A stretch of 64,000 bases of DNA from Patescibacteria group bacterium (GCA_041659765.1 JBAZXR010000001.1:108537-172536); one strand, 5' to 3'; counted from the first letter of the stretch, positions 22,195-51,023 are shown. The notes: generated by a model not told the origin, from the letters alone. Translations and numbers: made by a program.

Positions 22195-22641
22195 ATGAAA
22201 CTCATCGACAAACTCTCAGAAGACATGAAGGCGGCCATGAAGGGGAAGGACGTGAAAACGCTTGAGGTTCTGCGTATGGTCATTTCCTCTATTCGCAACA
22301 AGGCGATCGAACTCAACAAGGAGCTTGAGGATGCCGAAGTTATTGCGGTTATTAAGAGTGATGCGAAGAAGATCAGGGACGCCATGGAGACGTTTGCGCA
22401 AAATGCTCGACAAGATTTGGCTGACGAAGCGAAACGCGAAATTGCAATTCTTGAAACATACTTGCCGGAACAGATGCCGGATGCTGAGCTTGAAGCAAAG
22501 GTGAAGGCGAAGATTGAAGAGTTGGGTGCTAAGGCATCGAGTGAAGTTGGAAAAGTTGTCGGCGCGCTCGCAAAAGAATTGAAGGGATTGGTTGACGGCT
22601 CCCGGATTAAAGAAAAAGTAGAAAAGTTTTTGAATGAGTAA
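22195..22641 (+). CDS. GatB/YqeY domain protein
   Basis: 148 aa matching the YqeY family N-terminus (LSEDMKAAMKGKD...LRMV). Confidence 0.75.
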   Translation: MKLIDKLSEDMKAAMKGKDVKTLEVLRMVISSIRNKAIELNKELEDAEVIAVIKSDAKKIRDAMETFAQNARQDLADEAKREIAILETYLPEQMPDAELEAKVKAKIEELGAKASSEVGKVVGALAKELKGLVDGSRIKEKVEKFLNE

Positions 22642-23719
22642 TCCTGCCGGGGCGTACAAGGCAATTTTAGCCGACGTAGTTCATTTTTCGGTCACTAAAG
22701 CGGAAGCGCTGGAACGGATGGCCGAGCTTGAAGCTCTGACGCAAACATACGGTGGTATTGCGGTGGTTAAAGCTATTCAGCGCCGGGACAAGCCGGATTT
22801 TCAAACCTTTATTGGTAGTGGAAAATTGGAGGAGATAATTGCTGAGGCCAAGGACACTGGGGCGAACGTACTTATAGTGAATGACATTCTAAAACCCGGT
22901 CAGCTGTTCAGGCTCGAAGAAGCGCTTGAGCCCGTAAAGATGAAAGTCTGGGATAGAGTTGATCTCATTTTGCATATCTTTGACCGTCATGCCACGAGTG
23001 CGGAGGCGAAGCTCGAGATCGAATTGGCTCGCTTGCGCCATATTGGCCCGCGTATTTACAACATGGGGGCGCAGTTGGGCAAGCAGGGTGGAGGAACGGG
23101 CGTCCGCGGAGGTGCCGGCGAAAGTAACACGGAAAAGATGAAGCGCCATATTAAGGAGCGCGAGCGGGCGATTGTGAAGAAGCTCGAGGGTTATGAGAGC
23201 GGTCGAGCAGAACACCGGAAAAGCCGGGTACGGGCGGGTTTTAAGACGGTGGCGTTGGTCGGCTATACAAATGCTGGAAAGACGGCGCTGTTAAACGTGC
23301 TGACTAAGCGTAAAGAGATTTCTGCAAACAAACTATTCGCGACGCTTGATACTCGCGTCGGCGAGATATATCTGCCTGAGCTCGGAGCCTCGGCGCTCTT
23401 GTCTGACACTATTGGTTTTATCCGCGATCTTCCGCCTTCGCTCATTAAGGCCTTCCGCTCTACTTTGTCTGAGGCAGTTCATGCTGACCTTCTTTTGCAT
23501 GTTATTGACTCCGCAGACCCGAAGCTTGATCTCAAGCGCGCGGTGGTTGAAAACATCTTGGCGTCTCTTGGGCTGGCTGATCGCCCGACCATTTTGGTTT
23601 ACAACAAGTGTGATTTATTGCCTAAAAATTTGAAAAGAGAAGATGGGATTTGTGTTTCAGCGGTCACGAAAGACGGTCTACCCACACTTAAGGAAAAAAT
23701 TGCAGCCATGCTTCGATAG
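22634..23719 (+). CDS. hflX: GTPase HflX
   Basis: HflX N-domain and G-domain (GYTNAGKTALLN, DTIGFI). Confidence 0.85.
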   Translation: MSNPAGAYKAILADVVHFSVTKAEALERMAELEALTQTYGGIAVVKAIQRRDKPDFQTFIGSGKLEEIIAEAKDTGANVLIVNDILKPGQLFRLEEALEPVKMKVWDRVDLILHIFDRHATSAEAKLEIELARLRHIGPRIYNMGAQLGKQGGGTGVRGGAGESNTEKMKRHIKERERAIVKKLEGYESGRAEHRKSRVRAGFKTVALVGYTNAGKTALLNVLTKRKEISANKLFATLDTRVGEIYLPELGASALLSDTIGFIRDLPPSLIKAFRSTLSEAVHADLLLHVIDSADPKLDLKRAVVENILASLGLADRPTILVYNKCDLLPKNLKREDGICVSAVTKDGLPTLKEKIAAMLR

Positions 23720-23746
23720 TTCGTGGTAAAATGTGTGGGAGTTATG

Positions 23747-25471
23747 CTAAGCCGTTGGGCTCAGAATACGTTTGCAGTAATCCTTGTTATGGCAGGGGGC
23801 TTTTTATTTTCTGCGCCACAGGTTTTCGCTCAAGCTGATCAAACGGCTCAGGTGGCTGCTACGGCCGGGTTTGGGACAGCTGATCTACCGACTATTATTG
23901 GCCAGATCATCAGTGTTTTTCTGGGACTACTTGGCGTAGTTTTTCTGGTCCTGACTATTTACGCCGGCACCATGTGGATGACGGCCGCCGGTGATCCTAA
24001 GAAAGTTGAGAAGGCTAAGAATATTTTGATTCAGGCGGCCGTTGGGTTATTAATTACGATCAGTGCTTACGGAATCACCACCTTTATAGTCAATGCGATT
24101 ACGGGCGGAACTGGCGGCGGTGGGGGCGGGACAGGCGGTGGAAGTAATGGCGGAGTCTCGGTCGAGAGCCTGTCTGGTGCTTTGGGCGCCGGACCAATTC
24201 GCGACCATTACCCAACCAGAAATCAGACTGATGTGGCCCGGAACGCTAAAATAATGATTACGTTTAAGGAGGCCATTGACCCGGCCTCGGTGACGGTTAA
24301 TTCCGTGAAGATTTTCCCTGCCTCCACGGGTGTTACTGGTGCGCTCACGGACACGGTTATTAACTTTACAGACGATCACAAGACTTTTGTCTTTAGGCCG
24401 GCCGCCTATTTGGGCTCGCCGACCGCTAAGGTCCAGTACACCGTCCAATTAACTACTGACATTAAAAATGCCGGTGGTGCCAAGCTGTTCTCCGGCTCAT
24501 ACAGCAGTGGGTATAAGTGGTCATTTGAAACTGGCACGGTGCTTGATCTGACGCCGCCGACAATTGTGTCCGTTACTCCTGCTAACTCTGGCGCCTATGC
24601 TCGGAACATCGTAGTGCAGGCTACTTTTTCCGAACCGGTTGACCCAACTTCTGCTTCGGGCGTCCGAACATCTTCCGGAGGTTTCTCGAACATTGGGATT
24701 ACAAGTAATGCGACTGTGCAGGTGCCTGGCGAATATCAGATTTCCAATGGCTATACTTCTGTAACCTTCATCTCGGCTGAGCCTTGTGGCACTAACTCTT
24801 GCGGAGAAAAGATTGTCTGCTTGCCGGCTAGCAGCAGTTTGAATGTCACCGTTAAGGGTGCAAGTACTACGGCTAATCCTCCGCAGGCAGATACCTTTCC
24901 GTATGACGGTGTGGTAGACATGGCCGGTAATTCTTTTGATGGCAACCACGACGGCACGGCTGGAGACTTTTTTGGCTGGAGTTTTACGACCACCGGGGAT
25001 ATCGCGCTCGCGGGGCCAAAGATTGTGTCTGTTTCGCCGAATATTTCCGAAGAAGATGTGCCGCTTGATCAGCCGGTCACGATTACGTTTGGCGATGTCC
25101 TGATGACCTCTAGCGTTTCTCAAGACACAGTCCAGTTATCTAATAAAGAACAGGTGTCTGGCATTTCTCATGAAATGTGGTTTTCGCCGAGCACCTCCTA
25201 TTTGACGAGCGATGATCAGGTGGTGACTTCGGCTGCTCAGATTCCGGCCAAGACGGTGGTTGAAGTGACTCACGGAACGTTCTTGCAGTCGGTGGACGGC
25301 AAGTCATATTTGTATGGCTCGACAGTCACGAGTGGTTTGTTGAACCAGTATCAAAATTGTTATGTGCCCGGAGCGGGACCTGATGCGGTTGGCGGATTGT
25401 GCGGTGTGTCGGCCGCAGAGCCGTACTGCTGCAACGGTATCCCATCTTCCTCGGCTTGCATCCTCTTCTAA
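23747..25471 (+). CDS. Secreted surface protein with a TrbC/VirB2-like two-helix N-terminal anchor, Gly-rich linker and Ig-like (Big) domains
   Basis: Signal peptide, then two hydrophobic helices separated by GDPKKVEKAKN (VirB2/TrbC pilin-like), a G-rich stretch and beta-rich repeats. A TGnTAAAAT -10 precedes it and its stop abuts the giant gene. The track start at 23723 is possible. Confidence 0.65.
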   Translation, partial: LSRWAQNTFAVILVMAGGFLFSAPQVFAQADQTAQVAATAGFGTADLPTIIGQIISVFLGLLGVVFLVLTIYAGTMWMTAAGDPKKVEKAKNILIQAAVGLLITISAYGITTFIVNAITGGTGGGGGGTGGGSNGGVSVESLSGALGAGPIRDHYPTRNQTDVARNAKIMITFKEAIDPASVTVNSVKIFPASTGVTGALTDTVINFTDDHKTFVFRPAAYLGSPTAKVQYTVQLTTDIKNAGGAKLFSGSYSSGYKWSFETGTVLDLTPPTIVSVTPANSGAYARNIVVQATFSEPVDPTSASGVRTSSGGFSNIGITSNATVQVPGEYQISNGYTSVTFISAEPCGTNSCGEKIVCLPASSSLNVTVKGASTTANPPQADTFPYDGVVDMAGNSFDGNHDGTAGDFFGWSFTTTGDIALAGPKIVSVSPNISEEDVPLDQPVTITFGDVLMTSSVSQDTVQLSNKEQVSGISHEMWFSPSTSYLTSDDQVVTSAAQIPAKTVVEVTHGTFLQSVDGKSYLYGSTVTSGLLNQYQNCYVPGAGPDAVGGLCGVSAAEPYCCNGIPSSSACILF

Positions 25472-25477
25472 AACATT

Positions 25478-28400
25478 GTGAACATAAACCGCTTAAAACA
25501 CTTGGTTGTCGGGTTACTCGTCGCTACGAGCTCGGCTTTGCCGTTGGCTTTGCCAATGATCGCTTCCGCGCAGACGGACACGGTGACGAGCGGGCTTGAG
25601 ACCGTGGGTACAGCTACTGGTTTAGGAAATGAGGATCCGCGGATTATAGTGGCGAGAATTATTAGAGTAGTGATTTCTTCGCTCGGCGTAATCGCCGTGG
25701 TTATTGTTCTTTACGGCGGTTTCGTCTGGATGACCTCGGCTGGCAATGAAGAGAAGGTGAGTAAAGCTAAGAAGATTTTGTTGAGCGGCGGTATCGGTCT
25801 AATGATTATTCTGATGTCATGGTCCATCACCACCTTCATTATTAGTTCACTTTTGAGTGCAACTGGCGGTGGTGGTGGCGGTTCTGGCGGCGCAGGTGAC
25901 GGTGTAGGCGGAACTAGTCTGGGTGGCGGTTCTGGCAGTGGCTTTGTAGTAACCGGTATTGTTCCTAAGGGTGAGGTGACGATTAGAAATGTGCAGGTTC
26001 GTGTAACATTCTCGAAGAATGTTGATCCTGCAAGCATTGCTAACGCCTTTACGGTTAAAAATACCCTGACGGGTGCAGTCATTGCTGGTACGCCATCTGT
26101 TTCCGGAAACACCATTACTTTCAAACCTAGCACGCCTTGTTCGGACGCGGCACCAGCTCCGCTTTGTTTTGACGCGAGCACTCAGTTTACGGTCACCATG
26201 ACTACGGCCATTAAGAGTACCTCGGCGGTTGCTTTGACGTGTCCGACTAGCCGTCCCTGTGCTGGCAGCTTCACGACTGGAACTATAGTCGACGAGGTTC
26301 CGCCAACAGCTTTGATTACTGACCCTGACGCTGGACAGCGCGTGCCAGCCAATAGCTTTCAGAACGTTCAGGTGGTTGGTACTGATGATGTTGGTGTCGC
26401 TAGTGCTACCTTCTTGGCCGGTACTGTCAGTTTTGACGAAGTTCCGGCTACCGGAGCGGATCTCACGAGCGTAACAATTAGCGCTGATTGGGATACGAGC
26501 AACGAGGATGCTGGAAACTCGGTAAAATTGTCTTCCACTATTACTGACCTGGCTGGTAACACGGCTGAAGACTCAGTTGGGGTGCTCTTAGCACCAGCTT
26601 CATGCCAAAATAACGTCTTAGATTCCGGCAGTGGAGAAACGGGGATTGATTGTGGCGGTGATCCGACTAGCGCGAACTATTGTGGCGCGTGTGACGGCTC
26701 GGCTTGTACTTCTTCTACTGATTGTCAGTCCGGTTCTTGTGTGAGCGGTGTTTGTCGGGCTACGACCGTTATTAGAGCGGTTTCGCCATTGTCGGGTGCG
26801 CCTGGTACTTACGTCACAATTTCTGGTAATTCTTTTGGGGCAACGCCGGGCAAAGTTTTGTTTGTTGGTCCGGGCGCGCCAGTTGAGGCGGTTCTAGCTC
26901 CGTGTGCTGATGGTTGGACAGACCGCCAGGTAGTAGTCATGGTGCCGCCAGGTCCGGCTGGAACTGGTCCGATTACTATTGTGCGAGCAAATGCGGTAGA
27001 TGATTTTGATAAGGATTTAACTAATGATAATCGGGGTCCGCTCATTGCTAACTTCGTCGTGAACACGGTGGCGCATCCAAATCTGTGTGGTCTTTCGGCT
27101 ACCAGTGCCAAAGCTGGCGATTCGCTCACGCTTACCGGATCCGGTTTCGGCGCTAGTCGAGGGACTTCGGTAGTGGCCTTTGGTAGTAATCGTCCCGCCT
27201 CCACCTATTCGTCATGGTCTGATTCTTCCGCTCAGGTAGTGGTGCCGGTCGTAGCCTCTCGTGATGGCTCGTACGCTGTACATGTGGTTTCCGACGCCGG
27301 CATTTCGTCGAATAGCATTAGCTTACGCTTTACCTCGGCCGCTTCTTCTGGCGGATCTACAACCTCAGGTGGGACAACTACGCCGGGAGGCGTGACTACA
27401 CCAGGCGGGACTACTACTCCCGGTGGAACCACAACTCCAGGCGGAACCACTACGCCTGGCGGTTCAGCCGCCTCTGCACTTGTTCCGTCGCTCGTTTCGA
27501 TTGATCCTGGTCAGGGTGGAATAGGGCGTTACGTTAGTTTGACGGGCACAAATTTTGGTTCCGCTAAGGGGATTGTCAAGTTCACTAATACCGCGACCGG
27601 CGATACTGCGGTGGCTAGCTTGGATGTTTCTGCAGCCTGCGGTGCGGAAAACCCATGGGGTAACACGCTGATCAGATTTGTCGTTCCCGGCACCTATACA
27701 AATGGCACGGCCATCGCGGTCGCCGCACATACTGTGTCTATCACCTCAGCCAGTGGCCAGATTTCTAATACTGTTCCATTTACTATAATCGCTGATGATA
27801 CAAGACCGAATGTGTGCGGAATCGTGCCCGCTACTGGCCAGGCCGGGGATACGATAAAAATTGTTGGCGATCGGTTTGGCTCAACCAATGGCGCGGTTAC
27901 TTTTTCGTCGAGTGTGACTTCAGTCATCACCTCTTGGAGTAATACCGAAGTCAAAGTGACCGTTCCGGCCAGTGCTCAGAGCGGCAGTGTCACCCTAGCC
28001 AACGCCGCCGGAGTAAAAGGTAACAATGTTTATTTCAGCGTGGCTTCGCCTACTTCATCGGCTGGCGCGGTGGGCGGCGGCTATGCTTGGAGTTTTTCTT
28101 CCGGTTCCATTCCTAAAGTTCCAAGTTTGGTAACTGAGTGTTCGGCTTCGGTCGTTTCTGCTGTGCCGAATAACCGGTTTACGGACTCGGTTTGTACCAA
28201 TGCTGTGGTGTATGCCGAATTCACTCAGCCGATGAACCAGGCCACAGTGCAGGGTGCGGTGAAGGTTGACCGCTGTACCGGCGAAGGCTCTAACCCGTGT
28301 TCTTCGGTGATGGCGGTGACAGGTCAGACGCTCACTACTTTAAAATCTTTTACTTTTACGCCAAGCACGCCGCTGGCTATAAGTTCAACTTACCGCGTGA

Positions 28401-31400
28401 CCGTGGCCGCTACGGCTGAATCCGCCGATGGGGCAACTTTGGCTAGAGACGCTGAGTGGACTTTTGTGACAGCATCAACTAATACAGCTTGTTTAGTTGA
28501 TAGTGTCAGAGTGTCACCGGCCAAGGCGACTATTAACGTAAAGAACGGGACGGAAAGCTTCTCGGCCCTGCCGACGGCTGGTTGTGTGGTGCTTGACCCA
28601 GCTGGGGTTGAGTGGGATTGGGCACTGAATCCTAGTTTTGCGGCTCGTAATACAACGGCCAATCCGTCCTGTGTGGGCGGGTCTACGGCTTGTTTGACTG
28701 CTGAGGCTTTGGCCGAGGGTGTGACACCGGTCACGGCCACGGTGAGCAATACAGCGACAAACAGTTCAGCTAGTTTGACAATCGAGTTTACAGATCCGTA
28801 CGTCACCGGCGTTTGGCCTGATTGTGACGCCGCCTGCATGAACGCACAGATTGGGGCGAGCTTTAACATTCCAATGAATAAGCAGAGTCTTGAGGCCTCG
28901 GGGAACGTTCGGCTGTTTGAGTGTACAAACGAACTTTGCTCCGCTACTTCAGAGATTACGAGCCCGGACGCTAGATGTATGACGGTGACCGGTCAGTCTC
29001 CTGAGTGTACGGGCTTCGCCTTGAAGACCGTTACGCTCAACCCCGGTAAGTTTTATAAAGCACGGATTAGCGGCTCGGTTAGAAGCGTAAGCGGGGTGCC
29101 GTTGACTAGAACTAATGACGGAGGCGATTATTCTTGGGTGTTCCGCGCTCGGGAAGACGCTAGTGCTTGCGTGGTCAGCCGAGTTTCTATTTCTCCGGCC
29201 ACTGCTCTAGCCAAGGCGGTTGGTGACAAAACAACCTTTACGAGTACGGCCTTTGGCGAAGCTGATAGCTGTTCACAGTCTGGTCAGCGACTAACCGGCT
29301 TCTCTTACTCATGGACCTGGGCCAACCCGATTATTGATGAGGATCTGGATAGCAATCCGGCTACTAAAGTAGCAGAGTGGCTAGGTTCTTCACTTCGAGA
29401 CACTTCTCCTTCAGCTATTCCATCTGCCTGCTCCGCATCATGTACTCCTGGTGGCAGCGTGCCTTATGAAGCGATTTGCGGTGACGGGGTGCTTGATCTT
29501 ACAGGCGGCGAGGAATGTGAAGATGGCAACGTGGCCAATGGCGACGGTTGTTCAGCTTCTTGTTTGCATGAGGGGACTAGCGCGCCAACTTGTGGCAACG
29601 GCCTTATTGATACCGCCGAGGATTGCGATGACCGTAATCTGATTGATGGTGACGGTTGTTCAAATAGGTGTCAGTCCGAAGGTTCGCGCTCAGTTGGCGC
29701 AACCTGTGGAAATAATGATATCGCTCGTAACGCCACCACAAAAGCTGGCGAAGAATGTGATGATAGTAACGCTAAAAATGGTGATGGCTGTTCTTCCAAC
29801 TGTACCAATGAGGGGACACCGTCATTAGCGTCTATCGGCGGGGCGGTTTGCGGTGACCGCGTAGTCAACATACCGGGCGAGGGTTGCGACGATGGAAACA
29901 TTATTAACGGCGATGGTTGTTCGTCGGTTTGTTTGCATGAAGGCTCGCTTACGACTTGTGGAGTTGGCGGGGTTGACGCTGGCGAGGATTGTGATGATGG
30001 AAACGGGTTGAACGGTGACGGCTGTTCCTCCAGATGTTTGTTTGAGGGCTCTTCGGTGGCTTACTCGCTGCCATCTTTCTGTGGCGATGGCGTGGTTGGA
30101 ACGGGCGAATATCCGGCCTGCGAAGCTGGTGTAACAGGTGACGGTCGAATTGATCCTTTGCAAACCGCCATCATCAGTAGTGATGCAGCTTTTGAGGTAG
30201 ACTTGGCGACCAAGCGGGCGCACGCTACGGTTGAGGTTAAAGAAAACTCCTCTGGTCTATCTACTACCGCTGATCTTTCTTTGTCGTGCGTAGCCACCTC
30301 TGATGCCAGCTGTTCGGACCCTGCTCACAACGGCGTCGGTTCAGCTAGCTGCTGCATGCCACGGCCAACGGTGACGCTGATCCCAACCTCTGCTTCTACA
30401 ACCTGCCGTAATCCGGCCTTGTACGGTATCTTTTCTCAGAAGATGGATCTAGAATCATTTACTACTACCAACACTGACAGAGCGCTGACGGTTGAGACTG
30501 ACCACTTGTACCTGCAACTGGACTTGCCGGCTACCACTGCTCTTCCTGGAATGCCAGGTTCTGAGATTAGGTGTCCAAGTGGGTATCGCGTAGCTTTTGG
30601 TCATGATCCAAAGGGCTTCTTAGCTCGGGCAAAAAATACCATCGTTCGCTTCTTCGTTGGTGATTCAGCAGTCGCCGCGGAAGGTAAATGCTTGCTGCCG
30701 GTTACTGGCTACGAGCAGGTTGAACAGGACGATGGAACGTACAAAATTTATCTAAAATACGCTAAAGCGCTTGAGCCAAATGCGTCTTATACCCTTGTGG
30801 TTGATGGTGATCCAAATGTTCAAGATGGAGTAATAGTTGGAGTTACTTCAGTTTCAGGTGTTGGTTTGAACGGCACGGCCTCGTCTACATTTAGAACTGG
30901 CCCGAACCTATGTTCGTTAGATGAGGTCAAGGTGACCGACAACTACCGTGCGTCGCCCTACCTCTTTACGCGGGGTGATGAGGTGCATGCGTTTACGGCT
31001 GCAGGTATTTCTCATACGAATGGCCTAATTCAGGAAATCCAACCGATTCTCGGAGTCTACGATTGGGATTTTGATAAATGGAAGATTGCTGATGAGACCC
31101 TGTTTGGAGTGTCAGCTATCGGACCCAATATTCCTCATGACACTGTTGATATTAAATCCTTAGCGAAAAACGGCTCGACGAGTCTTTCAGCGCAGGCCAC
31201 TATTGGAGCAGACACGTTTGGCGGCACGACAGGCAAGAAAGTGATCGGTTCGACTGGGATAACGGCATTTTTATGTGAGAATCCTTGGCCGCCTCTACCT
31301 AAGTTCCCGTGGTCTGATGACCCGGCGGGCGAAGCTAACGGACTCGCATCGCAGGGGACTGAGGGCTGGATGAACATTTCTAGTTATTACTGTCGCGATC

Positions 31401-34400
31401 AGGGAGCGGTGGGCGTAGCTGCTGATCTGCCGACTGTTACGCCGGTTCGTCCGCCGGTAGCCGGAACTTCAAATATTATCAAGCAATACTTGTTTGAGGT
31501 GAGTGATGGTTCTGGCGACGCAATCGGCCTTCGAGTGGTGAGCAATCCGGGCTACCTCTCGCCGATGGCTTGGTATCGGGCTCAGAACTTCAAGGGCGGT
31601 CCCAAGGAGACTGTAGTGGATGGTTTTGCGGCGGTACAGGACGGCAGTACGGTGTATGTGGCTGCTCCTAACTATGCCAATGGCAAGTTCTATTCCAATA
31701 TCTACGTTTTGTCTGCCAATGAGGGGGCGAACGAAGCGACGCTAAAGATTTTTGCGAGCATGCTTGAGAATCTTAAGTTTGCGATTGACCTGAATGACGT
31801 GACTGTCTGTACTATTGGCGGATCCTTGTCGGATACAAGCTGCTCTTCGGATGATGATTGTCTGGCTCTTGGGGCTGGTGCAGTTTGTCCGTCTTTAAAG
31901 GCGAAGGTGCGCCGTGATACTCAGAGACTATCTGATTTGACGACTATCCGTTCAGCTATTACAGCCTACGGCGTGGATAATAGAGTATGTTCCATCACCA
32001 GGTCTCAGTCTTGCGCTTCAAATATTGAATGTCCGGTTGGCGAGTCCTGCGCATCAATTATTCCGGCGCTGTCTGCTGGAACCTTCGTGCGCAATTTCTC
32101 TGCTAGCCCGTGGACTAGCTGGGGCGACATGCTGGGTGGCGCGCTTGGCGCGAAGGAACTGCCAGTTGACCCGTTGAATGCCTTCACACCTAATACTTGC
32201 GGAGTAGTGGGTGGGCCATTAGCTAGTTTTGATCAGGCCAACTGCGTTGACCAGTCAAAGGGAACGTATACATGTCCGTTTGGTTCTCACGTGTACCAGT
32301 ATTTGGCGCAGGGAGACAGCTCGGTGAAACTATCGGCTAACCTTGAATTCTTTGAGGTGTGGGCTAGTCCAATTGATAATAATGGTTCGGCCGATGGAGT
32401 GGATATTACAGTTGGTAGAGCTAACGTGTCGGCTGATGGCTTTAGCACGGGGGACGTATGTTCAGGCGCGGTGCTTGGCAGTTCTGCCGTTTGCGGCGAC
32501 GGCGTAGTGGGCAGTGGCGAGGCCTGTGAACTTGGTCAGCGTGAGACTACAGTCGCCATCTGTGATGGTAATAATGATGGAATTATTGATGGTTTCAAGA
32601 CCAGGGTTTGTAATTCATCCTGTACCGCTTTTGTGGATGATCCTCAAGCCGTCTGCGTTTCACCTACTTGCGGGAATGCGGTCAAAGAGGGTTCTGAAGA
32701 GTGCGATGACGGTTCAAAAAATGGCTCGTACGGTTTCTGTGGAGCTGACTGTAGACGAGCCAGCGCCTTCTCTTGCGGAGATGGCTCTTTGGCCGGTGGC
32801 GAGAAATGTGATTGTGGCTCAAGCGGATCTCTGACTGGTCGTCGGGCTAATGGCAACGGCATCTGTCAGGTTTATAACGGCGTGTATCAGTCCAGTCCTT
32901 CAGCCTCATGTGCTTGGGATTGTTCCGGTCCAGCGCCATACTGCGGCGACAAGCATGTTGATAGCGGCGAACAATGCGATGGTACAGATGAGTTCTGGGA
33001 CGGAAAGTTGTGTTCAAGCGGCTCGCTGATTGGCCAGCCATGTACATCTGACAGTATGTGCGGAACCGCTGGCTTATGTGGCGGAACTAGCGCCTATGCG
33101 GCTTGTCCGGTCGGGGAGACGCGCACTCATGATTGTAATGACGCCGTGGGTGCTAGCTGTGCCTACTCAAATACTTGGCTAGCTGCTACCTGCGTCAGGG
33201 TAGGAACTTGCGGAGATGGTGTTGTCCAGAGCGGTCTAGAGCAGTGTGACGACGGAAATCAAAATGACACTGACGCCTGCACTCATTTGTGTAAGGTTAA
33301 CGTTTGCGGTGACGCTGCTCTTAACCCGCAGACAGAAGAATGTGACCTGGGCACGCAGAACGGCGGTTCTTGCAGCTCATCTTACGGCTCTACTTGCACC
33401 GCTTGTTCTGTGACCTGCCGCAACGTTATTTCATCCGGCGCGTTCTGTGGTGACGGCGTGAAGAATGGCACGGAGTTCTGTGATGGTTCTGACGTGCCAC
33501 TGACTTACTTCGATTCTGCCACCATGAAGGCCGGTGGGTCATGTGCTACGGACGGGGCAACGTCCAGCATTTATACCTGTCGTAGTTTAGGCGTGTGTAA
33601 CGGTGGAGCTAAGAATGGTCAGCTCTGTACAGCCGGATATATTGGTAGCACTGGTCCTGATTCCTACGCTCTTGATGTAGCTGACTGTACAGATTTAACC
33701 GGCAGTTACGAATGCGTTAAGCCGGCTTGTTCCGGTACTTGTTCTTCCTCCTGCCCGCTAACCTTTGCTAGTACCAGCTTGCTCATGACAGCTAATCAGC
33801 CAGGTTCGCGCCCAAGCCCAAGTGTCGATCTCTACTCGTACAACACGAGCTCTACCTCAACTCTGCCCAACGCGGCTACTATTACGGTTCCTGCTTGTAC
33901 GGTATTGCCCTCGGTTTCCGCGAACATCCGTTACGCCGAGAACTATGAACCACCGCAGGTGTACGTGATGTTCATCACTGATCTTTCGCAAACGATGAAA
34001 TACCGGGTCCGTGACGATGTTCTTCCTGGTTCAGGCGAAAAATCTCGGTTGGCTGTGGCGCAGGCTTCCATGGACTCAGCAACTGCAAGTTTGTATGAGA
34101 AGTTTGGTGCTAACGTGCATATCGGTTCGATCGGCTTCAAAGGTTTGGCGCAAGGAACTTGCTACAATAAAACCAACACATCCTGCACGGCGGGGACGGC
34201 TGCGGGCGATACTACTTGTTCAAACTTAACTCCGGGTGACTTCTGCTTGGACAAAACATCTCAGATTTCTGCTTCAACTATTACCTATCCGTTCGGTGAT
34301 ATCTATAGCTATAAGCTTGCTGATAGCACGGGGGCGTATTCGTTCGCTGATCAGCCGCAGATGTCTTCGCTAGTTTCGGCTATTGACTCAATGTTCGTTG

Positions 34401-35020
34401 ACAAAACGGGACCAACTGGTTGTACATCTAGTCCTTGTCAGTCAACAAATATCCATGGGACGAGAACTTATGAAGGTTTGGTTGAAGCTCGTCAGATGTT
34501 TAAGAAGATTAATGATTTGTCGACCACGGATAAGACTAATACCCGGTACATCGGGATCCTGCTATCTGATGGCGAGTATACGAACACAGACCCGCTCATT
34601 GAAGCAGCTGCATGGAAGGATAAATACGAGCTTTATACGGCCACAATCGGCAATGATTCGGCGTTCATTGCGCAGATGAACAGGTGGTCGACGAATAGTT
34701 GGGATGGAACTACGGCCAACACGAGTTCTGACACGTACAATGGCGTTGATTATTCCTTTACGGCATCAACGGATACGCAATTAACGGGCATTTATAGCCA
34801 GATAGTTAATACGATCCAAAATATTAGCGTTAAACTGGTTGTTGATAGTGGAGCTGCCTCGACTAGCGTGAATACTGGAAACGGAATCTCGCTCGTTTTG
34901 CCGCAAGGCTTTGCCTGCGACAAGCTTCACTCACAGAACGTGCCTATTCAGGTGACCTTTGCAGGCAAGGGGCAAATGACTATTAGTGACGTGCGTGTAA
35001 ATTATTGTGCGGCTCCATAG
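25478..35020 (+). CDS. Giant (3180 aa) VirB2/TrbC-anchored surface protein with Ig-like/IPT domains, Myxococcus-type cysteine-rich repeats (DUF4215-like) and a vWA domain with MIDAS
   Basis: GTG start 7 nt after the upstream stop. Its N-terminus is paralogous to the 23747 gene. It has IPT/Big-like segments, a (TTPGG)n linker, about six CG(D/N)GxxDxxEECDDGNxxxGDGCSxxC repeats (aa ~1330-1530) plus a second array (aa ~2340-2660), and DxSxS (ITDLSQTM) of a vWA/MIDAS at aa ~2830. Confidence 0.75.
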
Positions 35021-35900
35021 TATGGAAGACCTAGAGACCCAACAACCGCCAGTTGCCCAGCCAACGGTAGCTACTACCGCGCCGGTCTTTTATTCGCTCG
35101 CTCCAGAAGAAGCCCCAAGACCGACTCCGTGGTACAGGAAGCGTCAGCTGGTGGTGATGGCGGTTTCGTTCGCGGTTGCCCTTTTTGTGATCGGAGGGGT
35201 GGTGATCTTTGCGTCTAATTGGTTCGCTCAAAAAAATGCCCCGGCTAAAATAGCGGCTGAGGAAGCTTCCTCTATGTTGGCTGATAAAGTGTCGGCTTGT
35301 GATCAGGCGCTGGATCCAGAGACATGCAAAAACGGAGCCGGGATGCAGGTGGCGAACGCTACGGGTACGGCTGAGGTTTGTAACGGTTTGACGGGGGAGC
35401 TGCTTGATTCTTGCGTGTCCTTGGCCGCTCGGGCTGCGGCGAGCATCTCTGCCTGCGGTAAGCTAGATGGAGCTGCTAAGACGGCTTGTGAAGACGGTGC
35501 TTATAACGCTGAGGCTCAGACAAAGAATGATTTGACCTTGTGTGCCAAGATTGTAGACCAGGCTTTGGCTCTCGGTTGCGGATCTCGTGTGACGGAGGCA
35601 GCTTTGGCGAATAACTCCTGTGTTGCATCACACGTTGACCCGGTTCTTTGTTCCGATAGGCAGAGTTTATTAACAGCTATGAATTCTGGATTAGAGAGCG
35701 CCTGCACGGCACTATCTGATGAAGAAGCGAGGATAGATTGCATAAACGGTATCCATTCACTTGATGTAGACGGCGATGGTCTATCCGTTTTTGACGAAGT
35801 AAATACCCACCACACAGATCCTGTAAAACCGGACACTGATGGAGACGGGTATACTGATGGAGACGAGGTATCCACCGGACATGATCCTTTAAAGAAATAA
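35007..35900 (+). CDS. Bitopic membrane protein with Cys-containing extracellular domain and C-terminal Ca-binding DxDxDG (thrombospondin-type-3 / dockerin-like) repeats
   Basis: Pro-rich N-terminus, one TM helix, then DVDGDGLSVFDE and DTDGDGYTDGDE repeats. Overlaps the giant gene by 14 nt. Confidence 0.6.
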   Translation: MRLHSMEDLETQQPPVAQPTVATTAPVFYSLAPEEAPRPTPWYRKRQLVVMAVSFAVALFVIGGVVIFASNWFAQKNAPAKIAAEEASSMLADKVSACDQALDPETCKNGAGMQVANATGTAEVCNGLTGELLDSCVSLAARAAASISACGKLDGAAKTACEDGAYNAEAQTKNDLTLCAKIVDQALALGCGSRVTEAALANNSCVASHVDPVLCSDRQSLLTAMNSGLESACTALSDEEARIDCINGIHSLDVDGDGLSVFDEVNTHHTDPVKPDTDGDGYTDGDEVSTGHDPLKK

Positions 35901-35901
35901 T

Positions 35902-36549
35902 ATGTTTGACCAAGAACCTCAGGATATCTTTGCTGGAACGGATAAAGCTCCGGCGCCAGTTCAACCGCCAAGCGCAGTAGAGCGCGCTTCGGTTAATGCG
36001 TCACCAAGGCCGGCCCCAGCTATGGCTCCTGCTCCGGTTATGTCTGCTCCAAGGCAGCCTATGGAACCTTCGCCAACCTCTCATTTAATGAGAAATTTGG
36101 TGATCATCGTGATCGTAATTGCGGCTGTAGGCGGAGGAGCATACTTGGCTTATGCGCTTATGATTAAGCCGATCATGAATGCTAGCGTAGCGCCGGTGAT
36201 TCCGTCGGCCGTTAAGACTCCGGTTGTGCCAGCGGAGGAGACGCCACTCGCACCAGTTGAAACTCCGGTGGAGACTCCAGTGGCGGCTCCAGCCGAGCTA
36301 AACCCAAATTTCCTTGATAGTGATGGTGACGGTTTAAATAACGCCGCTGAACTTGAGGCGGGAACTTCGTCAACCAATCCTGACACTGACGGTGATGGTT
36401 TGGGAGATAGAGAAGAGGTGAGGGTTTATGGAACTGACCCTAATCGTACTGACACTGATGGCGATGGCTTCCTCGATGGGGCCGAAGTTCAGGGCGGTTA
36501 TAATCCGAACGGACCAGGCAAGCTCATGCAGATTCCAACCACCCCATAA
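35902..36549 (+). CDS. Paralogous bitopic membrane protein with Pro-rich linker and DxDxDG Ca-binding repeats
   Basis: TM helix, PV/PA-rich linker, then DSDGDGLNNAAE, DTDGDGLGDREE and DTDGDGFLDGAE. Confidence 0.6.
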   Translation: MFDQEPQDIFAGTDKAPAPVQPPSAVERASVNASPRPAPAMAPAPVMSAPRQPMEPSPTSHLMRNLVIIVIVIAAVGGGAYLAYALMIKPIMNASVAPVIPSAVKTPVVPAEETPLAPVETPVETPVAAPAELNPNFLDSDGDGLNNAAELEAGTSSTNPDTDGDGLGDREEVRVYGTDPNRTDTDGDGFLDGAEVQGGYNPNGPGKLMQIPTTP

Positions 36550-36552
36550 ATT

Positions 36553-37536
36553 ATGTTCGGATCTAAGGAGGCTCAACCGGTGACTCCAGCGGTGCCGGCA
36601 GTTAAAACTGACGACATGATTATTCATGTCATGCCCAAGGATTTTGCGGGAAAGCCGGCGTCTGCGGCAAGCGCGGGGTTGCAAACCCCGCCTTCTCAGG
36701 CGCCGATTCCGGCCCCGCAGCCTATGCCCGCACCAAAGCCGGTGGCAGCTCCCGCCCCGGCTGCACCAAAGCCGGCCGTGATTCCGCCTCCTAGGCGGAA
36801 GTTTGGCTTTGTTATCTTCCTGTTTGTTTTTCTTTTTGTCCTGTCACTTGGGGCTGCCGGAACCGTTTACTATCTCTATTTTATGCCGGTCGCGCCGTCT
36901 GAGAACGCGGGGTTAGTAACCCCGCCTTTACCGGCGCCTATTCCTGAACCCACCCCAATTCCGGTCGCGACGGAACCTGAGCCAGGCAAGGACACGGACT
37001 CAGACGGGCTGACTGATGTTGAAGAATTGCTATACGGAACTGATTACCGCAATCCAGACACTGACGGCGATACCTTCCTGGATGGCAACGAAGTCTTCCA
37101 CCGCTATAACCCGAACGGCCCGGCGCCGTTGACGCTCCTTGATACTGGCGCGGTGCGGGTGTTCGAATCGCCTGACATGCCGTTTACTATTTATTATCCG
37201 TCGGCTTGGACTCCGGTGGCTGACCCTATTGAAAAGAAGGTCACGTTCCGATCGCCCTCAACCGCGTCCGTGCTCATTACGGTTGAACTCAAAGATGCGA
37301 CCGCTAGCCTGGAAGGTTGGTATCAACAGAACGTACCAGACGAAAGCTCGCAGAAGCTTGAGGCGACATATACGTCTGAGGGCCTGCTCGCGCTGGCTCG
37401 TCGAGACCAGAGAATCGCGTATATTGATGGTGGTAGTAACGTCTTCACGCTCACTTATGACCTTGGAGATGAAAAAACCATTGAATTCCTATCTACCTTC
37501 CAGATGATGCTCAATGGTTTAAATCTTCTCCCATGA
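36553..37536 (+). CDS. Third paralogue: bitopic membrane protein with Pro-rich linkers, DxDxDG repeats and a C-terminal beta domain
   Basis: TM helix, PAP-rich linkers, DTDSDGLTDVEE and DTDGDTFLDGNE. Confidence 0.6.
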   Translation: MFGSKEAQPVTPAVPAVKTDDMIIHVMPKDFAGKPASAASAGLQTPPSQAPIPAPQPMPAPKPVAAPAPAAPKPAVIPPPRRKFGFVIFLFVFLFVLSLGAAGTVYYLYFMPVAPSENAGLVTPPLPAPIPEPTPIPVATEPEPGKDTDSDGLTDVEELLYGTDYRNPDTDGDTFLDGNEVFHRYNPNGPAPLTLLDTGAVRVFESPDMPFTIYYPSAWTPVADPIEKKVTFRSPSTASVLITVELKDATASLEGWYQQNVPDESSQKLEATYTSEGLLALARRDQRIAYIDGGSNVFTLTYDLGDEKTIEFLSTFQMMLNGLNLLP

Positions 37537-37958
37537 TTACTTTCGACGTCGAGCAAGAGTCTATCCCGAAGGGGAGCCGATTCTCTGGAGCGAGACTTAA
37601 GAAGATCGCCGGCGAGTTTGACGTTGCTCTGCGGAAGAAAGTAACCGGCATTGTTTCCTTGAGTTTTGTCGACGACCTAGAAATTCGTCGGCTTAACCGC
37701 ATGTACCGCAAGAAGGACAAGGTAACCGATGTTTTATCGTTTGGTTCCCCAGATGGCGATCGATCCGGGTATCTCGGTGACGTGATCATTTCGTACGAGC
37801 AGGCGGTGCGGCAGGCCGAAGACGAAGACCTCGAGCTTGAGCTGACTGATCTTCTCGTTCACGGCATCCTTCATGTGCTTGGTTACGACCACGAAAAGGC
37901 GGAAGATGCGGATGAGATGTTTCCTCTTCAGGATAAAATTGTGGCCGAAGTCCTATGA
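37533..37958 (+). CDS. ybeY: Endoribonuclease YbeY
   Basis: HGILHVLGYDHE metal-binding motif, 141 aa. Confidence 0.85.
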   Translation: MITFDVEQESIPKGSRFSGARLKKIAGEFDVALRKKVTGIVSLSFVDDLEIRRLNRMYRKKDKVTDVLSFGSPDGDRSGYLGDVIISYEQAVRQAEDEDLELELTDLLVHGILHVLGYDHEKAEDADEMFPLQDKIVAEVL

Positions 37959-38347
37959 TTTCTTTGCGAGCATTTTTCAAAAGTTTCCACCATGCTCTTC
38001 GCGGTCTCGCCGAATTATTTAAGACCGAACAAAGTTTTCGCCTTCAGGTGCTGGCGACAATTATCGTTGGCGGTCTCTTGATTGGGCTTGATCTCGCCGC
38101 TTGGCAAAGAATTCTGCTTATTTTGTTATGTTCCGCCGTCTTGATTCTCGAAATAATCAACAGCATCATCGAACGGGTCGCTGATGCAGTCCAGCCTCGG
38201 TTGAGTCCGATGGTGAAGGATGTTAAGGACATGATGGCGGGCGCAGTTCTTTTGACGGCGCTAACCGCGCTCGTGGTCGGGACGGCGATTTTGTACCTCC
38301 CGGTATGGGAAAAGGTCTGTGCTATAATTCAGTACTGTAAGCCCTAA
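37955..38347 (+). CDS. dgkA: Diacylglycerol/undecaprenol kinase (DgkA family)
   Basis: 130 aa, 3 TM, conserved ExxNSxIERxxD region. Confidence 0.7.
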   Translation: MISLRAFFKSFHHALRGLAELFKTEQSFRLQVLATIIVGGLLIGLDLAAWQRILLILLCSAVLILEIINSIIERVADAVQPRLSPMVKDVKDMMAGAVLLTALTALVVGTAILYLPVWEKVCAIIQYCKP

Positions 38348-38354
38348 ACTTCTC

Positions 38355-39635
38355 TTGATTGCTCCTTTTTTGGCTATGGCCGATGAGATTATCACGGGCT
38401 TGGACATTGGAACCTCCTCCATTCGTATTGCTATTTGCAAGGTTTCGCCAGGGGAAGATGGTAAACCGGCCCTCCATGTGATTGGGGCGGTTTCTTCACC
38501 GTCTGCAGGTATGCATCGCGGAGCAGTCTCCAGTATGGAGGATGCAGTTTCGGCGGTGTCTAAAGCCCTTGAGAAATCTGAACGCATGACAGGAATCGGC
38601 GTGAACACCGTTTGGGCGAGCATTGCCGGGCAGAGCATTTTGGTTCAGGAGAGCCGTGGCGCCGTGGCGGTTGCACGTCCCGAGGGCGAGATTTCTGAGG
38701 GGGATGTGGAGCGATCTATGGAAGCAGCTCGTACAGTAGCTGTTCCTTCGAATTATGAAATTCTCCATGTTATTCCGAAGGGCTTTGCCGTTGATGGGCA
38801 GCGTGGGATCAAGGACCCAGTAGGGATGTCCGGCATTCGGCTAGAGGTCGATGCAGTGATCATCGAGGCGCTCAATTCGCACATGAAGAATCTGACTAAG
38901 TGTGTTTATCGCACGGGTCTTGATATTGAAGATTTGGTCTACGCTCCACTTGCGACCGCGGAAGCCGTGCTTACGCAGCGGCAAAAGGAGCTTGGCGTGT
39001 GCCTGGTGACGGTGGGTTCAGCCACGACGTCTCTGGCTGTGTTTGAGGAGGGCGATCTGTTGCATACCGCTGTGCTTCCGCTCGGCGGTGACCACGTGAC
39101 GAATGATATTGCTATCGGCTTGCGTACCTCCATTGATATTGCTGAGCAGGTTAAGATAGCTTATGGCCACGCCGTGCCAGACGCTGTAGATAAAAAAGAC
39201 CAGTTTATTCTGCGTGACTTTGGAGCTGAGGCTGATGATGAAGTGAAGCGCCGATTTGTCGCAGAAATCATGGAAGCTAGAATGGAGGAGATCTTTGAGG
39301 CGATTGATAATGAACTTAGAAAGATTGATCGTTCGGGAATGCTTCCTGTCGGTGTTGTCTTTACCGGGGGAGCTATGAAGACTCCAGGTGCAATTGAAGT
39401 AGCGAAACGCGTACTCCGGCTGCCGTGCGCTGTAGGCGCTCCGGTCGGCGTTACGAGTGTTATCGACGAGGTTCAGGATCCTGCCTTTGCCACGGCTATC
39501 GGTCTGGCTGCTTGGGGTTTTGGTATCAGGCAGGTTTCGGGCAGTAAGTTTAACTTTGGAAAAATGATCCCGCTCAAGTCAATGGACAAAGTGGCCGACC
39601 AATTGCGAAAGTGGATGAAATCCTTGATTCCTTAG
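38355..39635 (+). CDS. ftsA: Cell division protein FtsA
   Basis: Actin-like ATPase motifs (GLDIGTSSIR, VVFTGGAAM). An alternative start at 38376 is possible. Confidence 0.85.
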   Translation: MIAPFLAMADEIITGLDIGTSSIRIAICKVSPGEDGKPALHVIGAVSSPSAGMHRGAVSSMEDAVSAVSKALEKSERMTGIGVNTVWASIAGQSILVQESRGAVAVARPEGEISEGDVERSMEAARTVAVPSNYEILHVIPKGFAVDGQRGIKDPVGMSGIRLEVDAVIIEALNSHMKNLTKCVYRTGLDIEDLVYAPLATAEAVLTQRQKELGVCLVTVGSATTSLAVFEEGDLLHTAVLPLGGDHVTNDIAIGLRTSIDIAEQVKIAYGHAVPDAVDKKDQFILRDFGAEADDEVKRRFVAEIMEARMEEIFEAIDNELRKIDRSGMLPVGVVFTGGAMKTPGAIEVAKRVLRLPCAVGAPVGVTSVIDEVQDPAFATAIGLAAWGFGIRQVSGSKFNFGKMIPLKSMDKVADQLRKWMKSLIP

Positions 39636-39718
39636 ATGGTGTACTATACGGTAGGGTACGAAACGTACTCATAGAAACAGAGGACTGAACACACTTGGTG
39701 TTCAACATCTACTGCCGT

Positions 39719-41035
39719 ATGGCTGAGTTCAAGCCGGAAATAGAAACCTGTGCAAAAATTAAAGTGGTGGGGGTAGGCGGCGGAGGAGGCTCCGCCATTA
39801 ACCGCATGATCACGGAGAAAATCCGTGGTATTGAGTTTTTGGCAGTAAATACTGACGCCCAGGCGCTTCACGGCAGTTTAGCAAGCACGAAAATTCCGAT
39901 CGGTAAGACGGTCACGAGGGGTCTCGGTGCTGGCATGAACCCGGAGATGGGTCGCCGAGCGGTAGAGGAGAACGCAAATGATATTCGGAACGCCATCACC
40001 GGTGCGGACATGGTTTTCTTGACTGCCGGCCTTGGCGGAGGAACTGGCTCGGGGGCTGTCTCTGAGATCGCCAAAATCGCTAAGGAGATCGGGGCGTTGA
40101 CCGTGGCGGTTGTGACTAAGCCTTTTTCTTTTGAGGGGGCTCAACGTCGAAGAATCGCTGAAGACGCACACCATGAGCTGGCTCAGCATGTAGACACTAT
40201 TATCACCATTCCGAACGACCGAGTTTTACAAATTATCGATAAGAAAACATCTTGGGCTGAATCTTTTAGAATTATTGATGACGTTTTGCGGCAGGGCGTG
40301 CAGGGCATTGCGGAGATGATCACCGTTCCTGGGCAGATCAATGTGGACTTTGCTGACGTAAAAGCCATCATGCAGAACGCGGGCAGCGCCCTCATGGGTA
40401 TCGGCAAGGCGTCTGGCGAGTCCAGAGCTGTTGACGCTGCTAAGCAGGCTATCGCGAGTCCGCTCCTCGAAATCTCGATTGATGGTGCGAAGGGCATTCT
40501 CTTCACTGTCGCAGGCTCATCGGACGTGACTATGTTCGAGGTCCAAGAAGCTGCGAAGATTATTACTGGTTCAGCTGACGACGACGCTAAGGTAATCTTC
40601 GGCATCATCCAGGATGACACCCTCGGCGACGAGGTTCGCATTACTGTTGTGGCCACCGGATTCGATAGTCGGGATCACCGCCGAGCTCCGTCGCTTGGCG
40701 GGGAGATTGGTATTGCGCCGAAGTCCGGCTGGCGCCCGCAGGCAGAACTAGAGCCGGTTAGACGCTATACACCTCCGCCACCGCCATTTAACCCGCCACC
40801 TGAACCAGTCCAGAAGCAAGAAGCACCTGCTTCCCCTTTTGGTCGCCGGCCGGTTTCACAGTTTACCCCATCGGAGCCGTCTCCTGAGCCGTCAGTTTCC
40901 TCATTTAACCCATCTCCAGTTTCTCAGCAGAATAGAGTGACCCCGGCTCAATCTTCGCCTTCCGCCCAAAATTCCCAAAAAGAAGATGATGGAGAGTTTG
41001 GCATCCCGGCTTTTATTCGCAGAAAGATGATGTAG
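39719..41035 (+). CDS. ftsZ: Cell division protein FtsZ
   Basis: Tubulin signature GGGTGSG and T7 loop, with a Pro-rich C-terminal linker and conserved C-terminal peptide (DDGEFGIPAFIRRK). Start at MAEFKPE...; the track start at 39695 is 8 codons upstream. Confidence 0.9.
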   Translation: MAEFKPEIETCAKIKVVGVGGGGGSAINRMITEKIRGIEFLAVNTDAQALHGSLASTKIPIGKTVTRGLGAGMNPEMGRRAVEENANDIRNAITGADMVFLTAGLGGGTGSGAVSEIAKIAKEIGALTVAVVTKPFSFEGAQRRRIAEDAHHELAQHVDTIITIPNDRVLQIIDKKTSWAESFRIIDDVLRQGVQGIAEMITVPGQINVDFADVKAIMQNAGSALMGIGKASGESRAVDAAKQAIASPLLEISIDGAKGILFTVAGSSDVTMFEVQEAAKIITGSADDDAKVIFGIIQDDTLGDEVRITVVATGFDSRDHRRAPSLGGEIGIAPKSGWRPQAELEPVRRYTPPPPPFNPPPEPVQKQEAPASPFGRRPVSQFTPSEPSPEPSVSSFNPSPVSQQNRVTPAQSSPSAQNSQKEDDGEFGIPAFIRRKMM

Positions 41036-50994: not shown

Positions 50995-51023
50995 TTGACA
51001 AAAGCCTGTTTTTTTGCTATTAT
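50995..51023 (+). promoter_or_regulatory. Promoter P3 (TTGACA - AAAGCCTGTTTTTTTGC - TATTAT)
   Basis: Copy of the shared promoter. It is preceded by CGGACA-type direct repeats (50967..50988). Confidence 0.65.

Follow-up and report, generated by a model that had tools for sequence, protein, structure and literature searches.

A conserved five-gene locus of Patescibacteria encoding a giant protein with a VirB2-type membrane hairpin and a putative role in attachment

Little is known of the means by which uncultivated Patescibacteria recognise and hold their hosts, except in a few Saccharibacteria, where type IV pili and an unusual type IV secretion system (T4SS) with pilins are indispensable. Pilins of the VirB2-like kind occur widely in the phylum and are essential to one Saccharibacterium (PMC12102498, PMC10633639); those described are small, mostly encoded beside virB4 and highly variable (PMC12102498; PMC10633639). 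Large cysteine-rich extracellular proteins from the candidate phyla radiation (CPR) have been proposed to mediate attachment (PMC4736985). Here we analyse a stretch of 64,000 nucleotides (nt) from a Patescibacteria group bacterium (GCA_041659765.1, JBAZXR010000001.1:108537-172536; hereafter the window, in whose coordinates all positions are given). Five consecutive genes within it encode two proteins with a VirB2-type hairpin at the N terminus, p582 (582 amino acids, aa) and a giant protein of 3180 aa, and three small bitopic membrane proteins, referred to below as families A, B and C. At these sizes, p582 and the giant are unlike a small stand-alone T4SS pilin subunit of about 100-150 aa. We consider it on balance probable that the five genes specify a conserved surface organelle, a membrane-anchored fibre or adhesin complex of a class-level clade of Patescibacteria, likely for attachment.

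The five-gene locus and its conservation

The genes lie on the + strand in the order p582 (23723-25471, with a GTG start), giant (25478-35020, a single uninterrupted open reading frame, ORF), family A (35007-35900, 297 aa), family B (35902-36549, 215 aa) and family C (36553-37536, 327 aa). Both large proteins start with a Sec-type signal peptide (aa 1-37 in p582, aa 1-32 in the giant), followed by two hydrophobic helices with a short lysine-rich loop between them and then by a glycine-rich linker. This layout of signal peptide, paired hydrophobic helices and short charged loop was read from the sequence (after ...ASAQ), and all orthologues have the same pattern. The hairpin covers aa 54-125 of p582 (23882-24097, +) and aa 48-131 of the giant (25619-25870, +). 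The T4SS_pilin model (PF18895, gathering cut-off 26.6 bits) matches p582 at 37 bits (3.6e-9) and the giant at 26.5 bits when the whole protein is scanned and 34.1 bits when the hairpin is isolated. It also matches 22 of 22 hairpins from orthologous giants, three of which are matched by TrbC/VirB2 as well, and p582 attains 40.1 bits with NF045849 (Mbov_0395 family, pilin-like conjugal transfer protein; cut-off 40). Of the signal peptide and TrbC/VirB2-like two-helix anchor that an initial annotation of this DNA had put on both large proteins, the former is thus visible in the sequence and the latter is supported for both by a hidden Markov model (HMM). A hairpin profile compared with PDB sequences retrieved neither VirB2 nor TraA, only spurious matches to designed 'Pizza' repeat proteins. 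Over 245 aa, covering the hairpin and the first Big_5 domain, p582 and the giant share 34% identity at their N termini, and the two anchors are therefore paralogous. VirB2-type pilins (F- and T-pilins) have both termini facing outward, and by analogy everything after the hairpin would be outside the cell. In p582 this part comprises Big_5 immunoglobulin (Ig)-like domains (aa ~162-545, Pfam Big_5 4.9e-22) and a conserved, cysteine-rich C-terminal knob (YQNCxxP...CCNG...C). The 66 orthologues of p582 are 439-715 aa long and occupy the same position.

In the giant, a proximal stalk (aa ~157-1225, 25946-29152, +), dissected by Pfam searches on segments, contains a Big_5 domain, a Big_7-like domain (a weak match), a cysteine knot, four IPT/TIG domains with a PGGTTT linker and two more Big_5 domains. 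An array of five cysteine-rich acidic repeats comes next (aa 1334-1524, 29477-30049, +), matching DUF4215 at 8.7e-24 (84 bits) and TIGR02232 (myxo_disulf_rpt) at 1.1e-40 (137 bits). A second cysteine-rich region (aa 2338-2760, 32489-33757, +) consists of degenerate Myxococcus-type repeats (DUF4215 9.1e-8, 32.7 bits, in two stretches; TIGR02232 3e-7, 30 bits), with 40 cysteines in aa 2401-2800. Both arrays exceed the TIGR02232 cut-off of 20.8 bits. The Ig-like and IPT segments and the two Myxococcus-type arrays that had been noted initially are thereby confirmed, the former by the Big_5 and four TIG matches and the latter by DUF4215 and TIGR02232 matches in each.

Between the two arrays, a PsbP/Mog1/LpqN-like alpha/beta domain (aa ~2013-2125, 31514-31852, +; motif GDAIGxRV...WY...VDGxxAxxDGxTVYV...NIY) is followed by a domain that resembles the head of a type IV pilin or of a type II secretion system pseudopilin (aa ~2139-2300, 31892-32377, +) and carries cysteine-knot insertions. 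The head fold, a long helix packed on a beta-sheet, is present without the hydrophobic N-terminal helix: neither a class III (prepilin peptidase) signal nor a hydrophobic segment precedes the helix. This PsbP-like plus pilin-like module also stands alone in related genomes, as secreted proteins of 400-450 aa whose genes have a conserved context of their own, pfkB-fpg-X-DUF212-yceG-rplJ-rplL (loci L082, 8001-9338, and L083, 8001-9272). At L082, type IV pilin (N_methyl) genes are found close to the stand-alone gene.

The distal tip (33956-35017, +) holds a vWA domain (aa ~2827-3114) with a cysteine-rich insert of ~120 aa, and then a small C-terminal beta domain ending in a conserved ...YCxP. A vWA domain with an intact DxSxS motif had been annotated here, and the domain itself is real by the evidence of its orthologues. 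A profile of the last 400 residues of 29 orthologues, aligned with the window sequence first, retrieves vWA domains from the PDB at 3.5e-15, including those of SpaC, PilB, Mfa5 and GBS104, and the orthologous C termini taken singly match Pfam VWA_2 in 22 cases and VWA in 21. The window copy fails the Pfam cut-off because the insert masks the domain, and the annotated motif has to be corrected. The first motif of the metal ion-dependent adhesion site (MIDAS) is DxSx[ST] in the orthologues and D2835-x-S-x-T (D-L-S-Q-T) in the window, where alignment puts the other putative MIDAS positions at the T in HGTRTYEG (aa 2993-3000) and the D in LLSDGE (aa 3028-3033). Among the aligned orthologues, residues at these putative MIDAS positions are conserved. 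The LPXTG motif, hydrophobic segment and charged tail of a sortase anchor are absent at the C terminus of the giant, which reads ...NYCAAP.

Families A, B and C had been described as three paralogous bitopic proteins with DxDxDG repeats, all with proline-rich linkers. They are bitopic and have TSP3 repeats, yet represent three distinct orthologous families. Family A combines a short cytoplasmic tail, a transmembrane (TM) segment (aa ~49-72), an ectodomain made, in this lineage, of cysteine-paired helical repeats, and two C-terminal TSP3 repeats (35757-35897). In family B an N-terminal MFDxEPxDxFxG and a proline-rich cytoplasmic tail precede the TM segment (aa ~63-87), a proline-rich linker and three TSP3 repeats (36313-36501). 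Family C has a cytoplasmic tail with I..MP..F.G, a TM segment (aa ~84-110), a proline-rich linker, two TSP3-like repeats (36988-37107) and a PsbP-like domain (37135-37533; Pfam PsbP E 0.2). The proline-rich linker is thus a property of B and C, family A having 4% proline. With TSP3_bac (PF18884, cut-off 25 bits), family A scores 43.4 bits (3e-11) and family B 60.3 bits (1.6e-16); family C is weak (15 bits, E 0.023), with DTDSDG and DTDGD motifs visible, and its 52 orthologues conserve D.DsDGLTD.EE and PDtD.D.flDGnEV. The C-terminal domain of family C is homologous to the PsbP-like domain of the giant (hhalign 96.6%, E 5.8e-10, against 0.1% in a control comparison with the pilin-like domain), and this shared domain is a first link, at the level of sequence, between a small protein and the giant. 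Exactly three bitopic ORFs separate the giant from ybeY in 52 of 64 loci.

Recent paralogy of A, B and C was dropped, as the three are separately conserved with only the TSP3 repeats in common. So was an FtsQ/DivIB-like identity of family C, in which Pfam shows TSP3 and PsbP-like domains only. The repeats had also been likened to dockerins; Dockerin and Cohesin models matched in none of the Pfam scans, which on segments extended to E<=5 (the sole related match was a sub-threshold EF-hand_6), and dockerin-cohesin pairing was abandoned. Apart from this, the cytoplasmic tails of B and C (35902-35940; 36553-36650) keep their motifs, at the very N terminus in B and ~20 residues in for C, throughout 52 orthologue sets, and they look like docking peptides for a cytoplasmic partner.

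The five genes are placed among housekeeping genes on the same strand. Upstream is hflX (22634-23719, Pfam HflX), and downstream follow ybeY (37533-37958, YbeY 1.4e-32), dgkA (37955-38347, DAGK_prokar 9e-28), ftsA (38355-39635, FtsA 8.1e-35), ftsZ (39695-41035) and nrdR (41040-41492). The junctions from hflX through nrdR measure, in order, 3, 6, -14, 1, 3, -4, -4, 7, 59 and 4 nt, the negative values being overlaps (giant with A by 14 nt, C with ybeY by 4 nt). The order given by the initial annotation, from hflX to ftsZ, was recovered as placed, and its spacing of at most 7 nt holds everywhere except between ftsA and ftsZ. Its length of 575 aa for p582 corresponds to an in-frame ATG at 23744 (not 23747), whereas translation from the GTG at 23723 yields 582 aa. 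Looking up the 582-aa form by exact sequence returned no match, and the recorded gene probably starts elsewhere. GC content in the region, 50-53%, is similar to that of most of the window. The genes ybeY-dgkA-ftsA (37533-39635) are housekeeping genes and not part of the surface structure, and they likely belong to the same transcription unit as the five-gene set. Scans of 21.8-41.6 kb for consensus promoters and terminators found sites no more often than in shuffled sequence and are uninformative on transcription units.

The giant belongs to a large family. Among 1.84 billion cluster representatives searched exhaustively by HMMER with its central region (aa 1560-2330), 1295 matched at E<=1e-3 and 391 at E<=1e-30, mostly proteins of 3000-4000 aa with the match at the same relative position. 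By BLASTP, over 100 of the best 150 representatives show homology across aa 61-2700. Word-indexed homologue searches gave one match only with the 771-aa central region and one with the C-terminal profile, the latter an 88%-identical fragment. A scan of one genome per species revealed relatives in 145 genomes, and the best 80 loci, mapped with the window's own proteins, were examined. These come from Candidatus Uhrbacteria, Falkowbacteria, Magasanikbacteria and unclassified Patescibacteria, and the CPR origin first proposed is supported. The record titles of many metagenome-assembled genomes bearing the cluster (L003-L005, L006, L008, L009, L023, L065 and others) read 'uncultured Gammaproteobacteria', 'Candidatus Kapaibacterium' or 'Candidatus Udaeobacter', names that are clearly placeholders or misassigned.

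Comparison of gene order among related CPR genomes, which the initial annotation had recommended, gave a uniform picture. Wherever the flanks reach, the order is hisS-yqeY-p582-giant-A-B-C-ybeY-dgkA-ftsA-ftsZ-nrdR, in about 60 species-level genomes and down to ~28% identity in the query region. The gene hflX is inserted only in the ~15 closest genomes, so that the linkage to hflX, true of the window, does not extend to the clade. Median spacing is -4 nt between C and ybeY (63 genomes) and between ybeY and dgkA, 8 nt between p582 and the giant, and 146 nt between ftsA and ftsZ. The position of the cluster, which had been called unusual, is instead ancestral and strictly conserved across a class-level clade, down to the 4-nt median overlaps. 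At 5-6 loci (Magasanikbacteria-type and relatives; L059, L060, L065, L075, L076, L077) the giant gene is split into a first ORF of ~2256 aa, which ends just past the start of the central module, and a second of 1100-1500 aa with a signal peptide of its own; this suggests that two secreted units have fused to form the giant, or that the giant is coming apart into two.

Conservation along the protein was measured as identity to the window sequence in 50-aa blocks of an alignment of 51 full-length orthologues. The hairpin is the best-conserved block (55%), followed by the cysteine knot at aa 401-450 (53%), some stretches of the cysteine-rich repeats (which reach 52%) and the PsbP-like domain (47%). 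Identity is lowest, at 7-23%, in the last 330 residues. More distant lineages have LamG-type lectin or CarboxypepD_reg-like domains in the distal third in place of vWA, and one Falkowbacteria genome keeps vWA. An adhesin anchored at its N terminus would be expected to show this pattern, a conserved base and a distal binding domain that can be exchanged.

Attachment and other readings of the locus

The reading that we favour is as follows. Both large proteins would be exported via Sec and held in the membrane by the VirB2-type hairpin, with the glycine-rich hinge putting the remaining chain outside the cell. The giant would form a long fibre stiffened by disulfides and Ca2+, with a length of about 100 nm if each 100-aa Ig-like domain contributes roughly 4 nm. 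From the membrane outward, this fibre would display the Ig/IPT domains, the cysteine-rich acidic repeats, the central PsbP-like and pilin-like module, the second cysteine-rich stalk and a ligand-binding tip, which is predicted to be a MIDAS-type vWA in this organism and a LamG-type lectin or another domain in other lineages. As a short paralogue with the hairpin and first Ig domain in common, p582 probably associates with the giant in the membrane. The bitopic TSP3 proteins may surround the base, probably bracing or organising it via Ca2+-bound repeats, to which family C would add its PsbP-like domain. We propose that the structure serves to attach the cell to a host cell or to a surface and that its exchangeable tip sets the specificity. 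Given the translational coupling of the genes to ybeY-dgkA(-ftsA), the cell would produce the structure constitutively, alongside its functions for growth and division.

Attachment as the function is strengthened by the match of the vWA profile to pilus-tip adhesins, by the distal third being least conserved and swapping vWA for LamG, and by the PsbP-like domain common to family C and the giant. The same observations support, in general terms, the cell-surface attachment structure suggested by the initial annotation, whose function is deduced from sequence; the part of partners or scaffolds that it gave to the small proteins is putative. Attachment also fits the host-dependent lifestyle inferred for Patescibacteria and the earlier proposals for large cysteine-rich CPR proteins (PMC4736985).

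Several points weigh on the other side. The vWA copy of the window, taken alone, is below the Pfam cut-off (14.1 vs 23.8 bits, E 0.057) and gives no match at E<=0.01, its first MIDAS motif is DxSxT, and an AlphaFold2 model of it, built without a deep alignment, had a confidence (pLDDT) of 31 and was not used. Neither a cohesin nor a dockerin model matched that would explain how the small proteins bind. Adhesins that determine host specificity usually vary both in whether they are present and in where they are encoded. This cluster occurs in one copy at a fixed place and is coupled to housekeeping genes, and that fits a structural role in the envelope equally well. The most conserved part of the giant is the hairpin, more so than a passive anchor needs. 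Finally, no binding partner or ligand can be named.

Such a structural role is the first alternative, and we regard it as rather unlikely. The cluster would be a scaffold of the envelope (a surface coat, a spacer or a division- or pole-associated organelle) whose bitopic tails connect to the divisome and whose fibre shapes or protects the surface. The strict class-wide synteny with ybeY-dgkA-ftsA-ftsZ, with its 4-nt overlaps, and a single-copy locus that behaves like a core gene are what such a scaffold would lead one to expect, and the conserved N-terminal cytoplasmic motifs of families B and C are as expected for docking to a cytoplasmic partner. Big_5 is an SbsA-type Ig domain common in S-layer proteins, so that its presence in both large proteins is in keeping with this role, and PsbP/LpqN/DcrB-like domains occur in envelope-biogenesis lipoproteins. 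However, a distal third that is poorly conserved and swaps vWA and LamG between lineages is typical of binding tips and not of lattices, and the vWA domain resembles those of pilus-tip adhesins. The Pfam scans yielded no S-layer, SLH, FtsQ or POTRA model. The coupling to divisome genes may reflect only operon history, the gap before ftsZ being larger than the others (median 146 nt). Identification of the giant as an S-layer protein was rejected, since no SLH or S-layer model matched and the variable binding tip argues against it.

Somewhat less likely still, in our estimation, is that p582 and the giant are modular VirB2-type pilins, the T4SS counterpart of modular type IV pilins, whose hairpins polymerise through a Patescibacteria T4SS or by themselves and display the ectodomains outside. 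The hairpin speaks for this: all 22 orthologue hairpins match T4SS_pilin and three TrbC/VirB2, p582 reaches the NF045849 cut-off, and the hairpin is at once the best-conserved block of the giant and always accompanied by a paralogous hairpin protein encoded next door. Its unusually high conservation favours something more than passive anchoring. A C-terminal fusion would be topologically compatible, judging from VirB2-type pilins with both termini outward. VirB2-like pilin arrays exist and are essential in Saccharibacteria, while surveys of Patescibacteria T4SS report no PrgB-type adhesin (PMC12102498, PMC10633639), and the vWA profile matches PilB at 1.5e-11. Against polymerisation through a T4SS, reading all translations of the 64-kb window and scanning its larger unassigned ORFs only with HMMs revealed no VirB4, VirB6 or PrgI-like gene, and the mapped flanks of related loci, searched with the window's own proteins only and not with T4SS models, hold housekeeping genes (hisS, yqeY, ybeY...nrdR). 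The profile search matched no solved VirB2 or TraA structure. An ectodomain of 3000 aa on every subunit is sterically implausible in a helical polymer, so that the giant could be a rare or tip subunit at most.

A combination of these ideas seems to us more speculative again: the hairpins of p582 and the giant, as a new class of modular VirB2-type pilins, would co-assemble into a short pilus-like base rooted in the membrane, with or without a T4SS, the TSP3 proteins would tie this base via their conserved cytoplasmic motifs to FtsA or the divisome, and each daughter cell would inherit one polar attachment organelle with a lineage-specific tip. Host attachment would then be coupled to division by a machine confined to this branch of the CPR. 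That there is no functional unit at all, the long ORF being an artefact of assembly or annotation or the cluster a set of unrelated surface genes beside division genes, has next to no probability and the artefact is excluded: although the sequence comes from a metagenome and misassembly of its repeat-rich cysteine arrays is conceivable, the stretch 25902-38914 recurs with 100% identity in an independent Logan assembly (SRR18595301), the only tandem repeat within the giant gene is the short PGGTTT linker (27359-27462), 51 orthologues of at least 2850 aa run without interruption, domains match along the whole ORF and the same five-gene order recurs in about 60 genomes. The initial annotation had held that an interruption of this ORF on resequencing would count against it, and the independent assembly and the orthologues are intact.

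The locus is a concrete and widely conserved attachment candidate for Uhrbacteria, Falkowbacteria and Magasanikbacteria, with a fixed five-gene set, a conserved base and an exchangeable tip. Several questions become testable with it, namely how the type of tip relates to host or habitat, whether the protein corresponds to the fibres seen on ultrasmall groundwater cells, and whether VirB2-type hairpins serve as carriers of adhesins. In addition, its clean synteny makes the locus a marker for the clade, and it adds a recurrent PsbP-like and pilin-like module to the surface domains specific to Patescibacteria.

Elsewhere in the window

An island of high GC content (50700-55650, 58-63% vs ~51% elsewhere) encodes secreted or lipoprotein-like proteins on the + strand (51188-52381, 52672-54225, 54385-54921 and 55091-55621), while its long ORFs on the - strand resemble shadow frames. 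The protein at 52672-54225 has a low-complexity stretch rich in D and T, followed by MopE-type Cu-binding motifs (PF11617, 2e-15). The island is possibly a foreign insertion. Directly after an ORF read as pyruvate kinase, 42920-43387 (+) encodes a lipoprotein-like cupredoxin of 155 aa (plastocyanin/azurin family, 3.5e-10), a blue-copper protein unexpected in a lineage usually thought to be without a respiratory chain.

A tmRNA gene (46633-47027, -; Rfam 99.8 bits) adjoins 47033-47482 (-), read as smpB from its translation only, and five tRNA genes are located at 5290-5578, 19650-19723 and 43489-43562. The ORFs 10271-12463 (+, 730 aa), 59854-61953 (-, 699 aa) and 43736-45175 (-, 479 aa) had no significant Pfam match. 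The 730-aa ORF has a sub-threshold TCAD9 match, and the 479-aa ORF is proline-rich with one TM segment.

Comparison with known systems

Every building block of this locus is of a known domain family, and giant modular adhesins are already known. Full-text literature searches gave no description of the five-gene cluster or of VirB2-type hairpins fused to large ectodomains. Four features therefore appear undescribed: the fusion of such a hairpin to very large ectodomains; a five-gene set that is conserved and coupled to ybeY-dgkA-ftsA across a class-level clade; the internal PsbP-like and pilin-like module; and the occurrence of its PsbP-like domain in a partner protein as well.

With the T4SS pilins of Patescibacteria the locus shares the phylum and the N-terminal domain family (signal peptide, two hydrophobic helices and a short basic loop), two hairpin genes being in tandem here. 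In contrast to those pilins, the hairpin is fused to ectodomains of 450 aa and 3050 aa, is the best-conserved block and is encoded in a housekeeping operon. PilB of Streptococcus sanguinis (PMC8179133; PDB 7b7p) likewise joins a filament or membrane module to a metal-dependent vWA adhesin module, metal binding by the vWA domain being putative in our case. The giant is ~8x larger than PilB and is anchored by a VirB2-type hairpin instead of a class III prepilin helix, and its pilin-like head is internal, without N-terminal helix and prepilin signal.

The vWA tip adhesins SpaC, Mfa5 and those of the GBS104/RrgA type resemble the giant in that a long Ig stalk ends distally in a vWA domain into which arms are inserted (profile matches 4e-12 to 1e-7). 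They differ in that the giant has no LPXTG or sortase signal, is a single polypeptide and not a covalent polymer, and has its membrane anchor at the N terminus. The types of repeat are those of the TraA stalk, CglD and MtsD of Myxococcus (TIGR02232, NF033765, NF047639), with the TSP3 stretches aligning to CglD and MtsD. Their role is probably the same, that of rigid stalks stabilised by disulfides and Ca2+ in proteins of cell-cell contact. The likeness is nevertheless confined to the repeats, which score 19-33 bits vs family cut-offs of 400-800, and the envelope, anchors and partners are different.

Like the giant adhesins of the SiiE/LapA type and the giant surface proteins of CPR and Omnitrophota, among them large cysteine-rich proteins of Peregrinibacteria (PMC4736985) and dockerin-type giant proteins (bioRxiv 10.1101/2023.11.21.568195), the giant described here is a very long extracellular protein built of repeats, of a kind proposed to serve attachment in host-dependent or predatory ultrasmall bacteria. 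Those adhesins vary between lineages or strains, are secreted by type I secretion systems or lack TM anchors, and have no fixed operon, whereas the giant is a single-copy orthologue whose architecture and synteny are conserved across the class.

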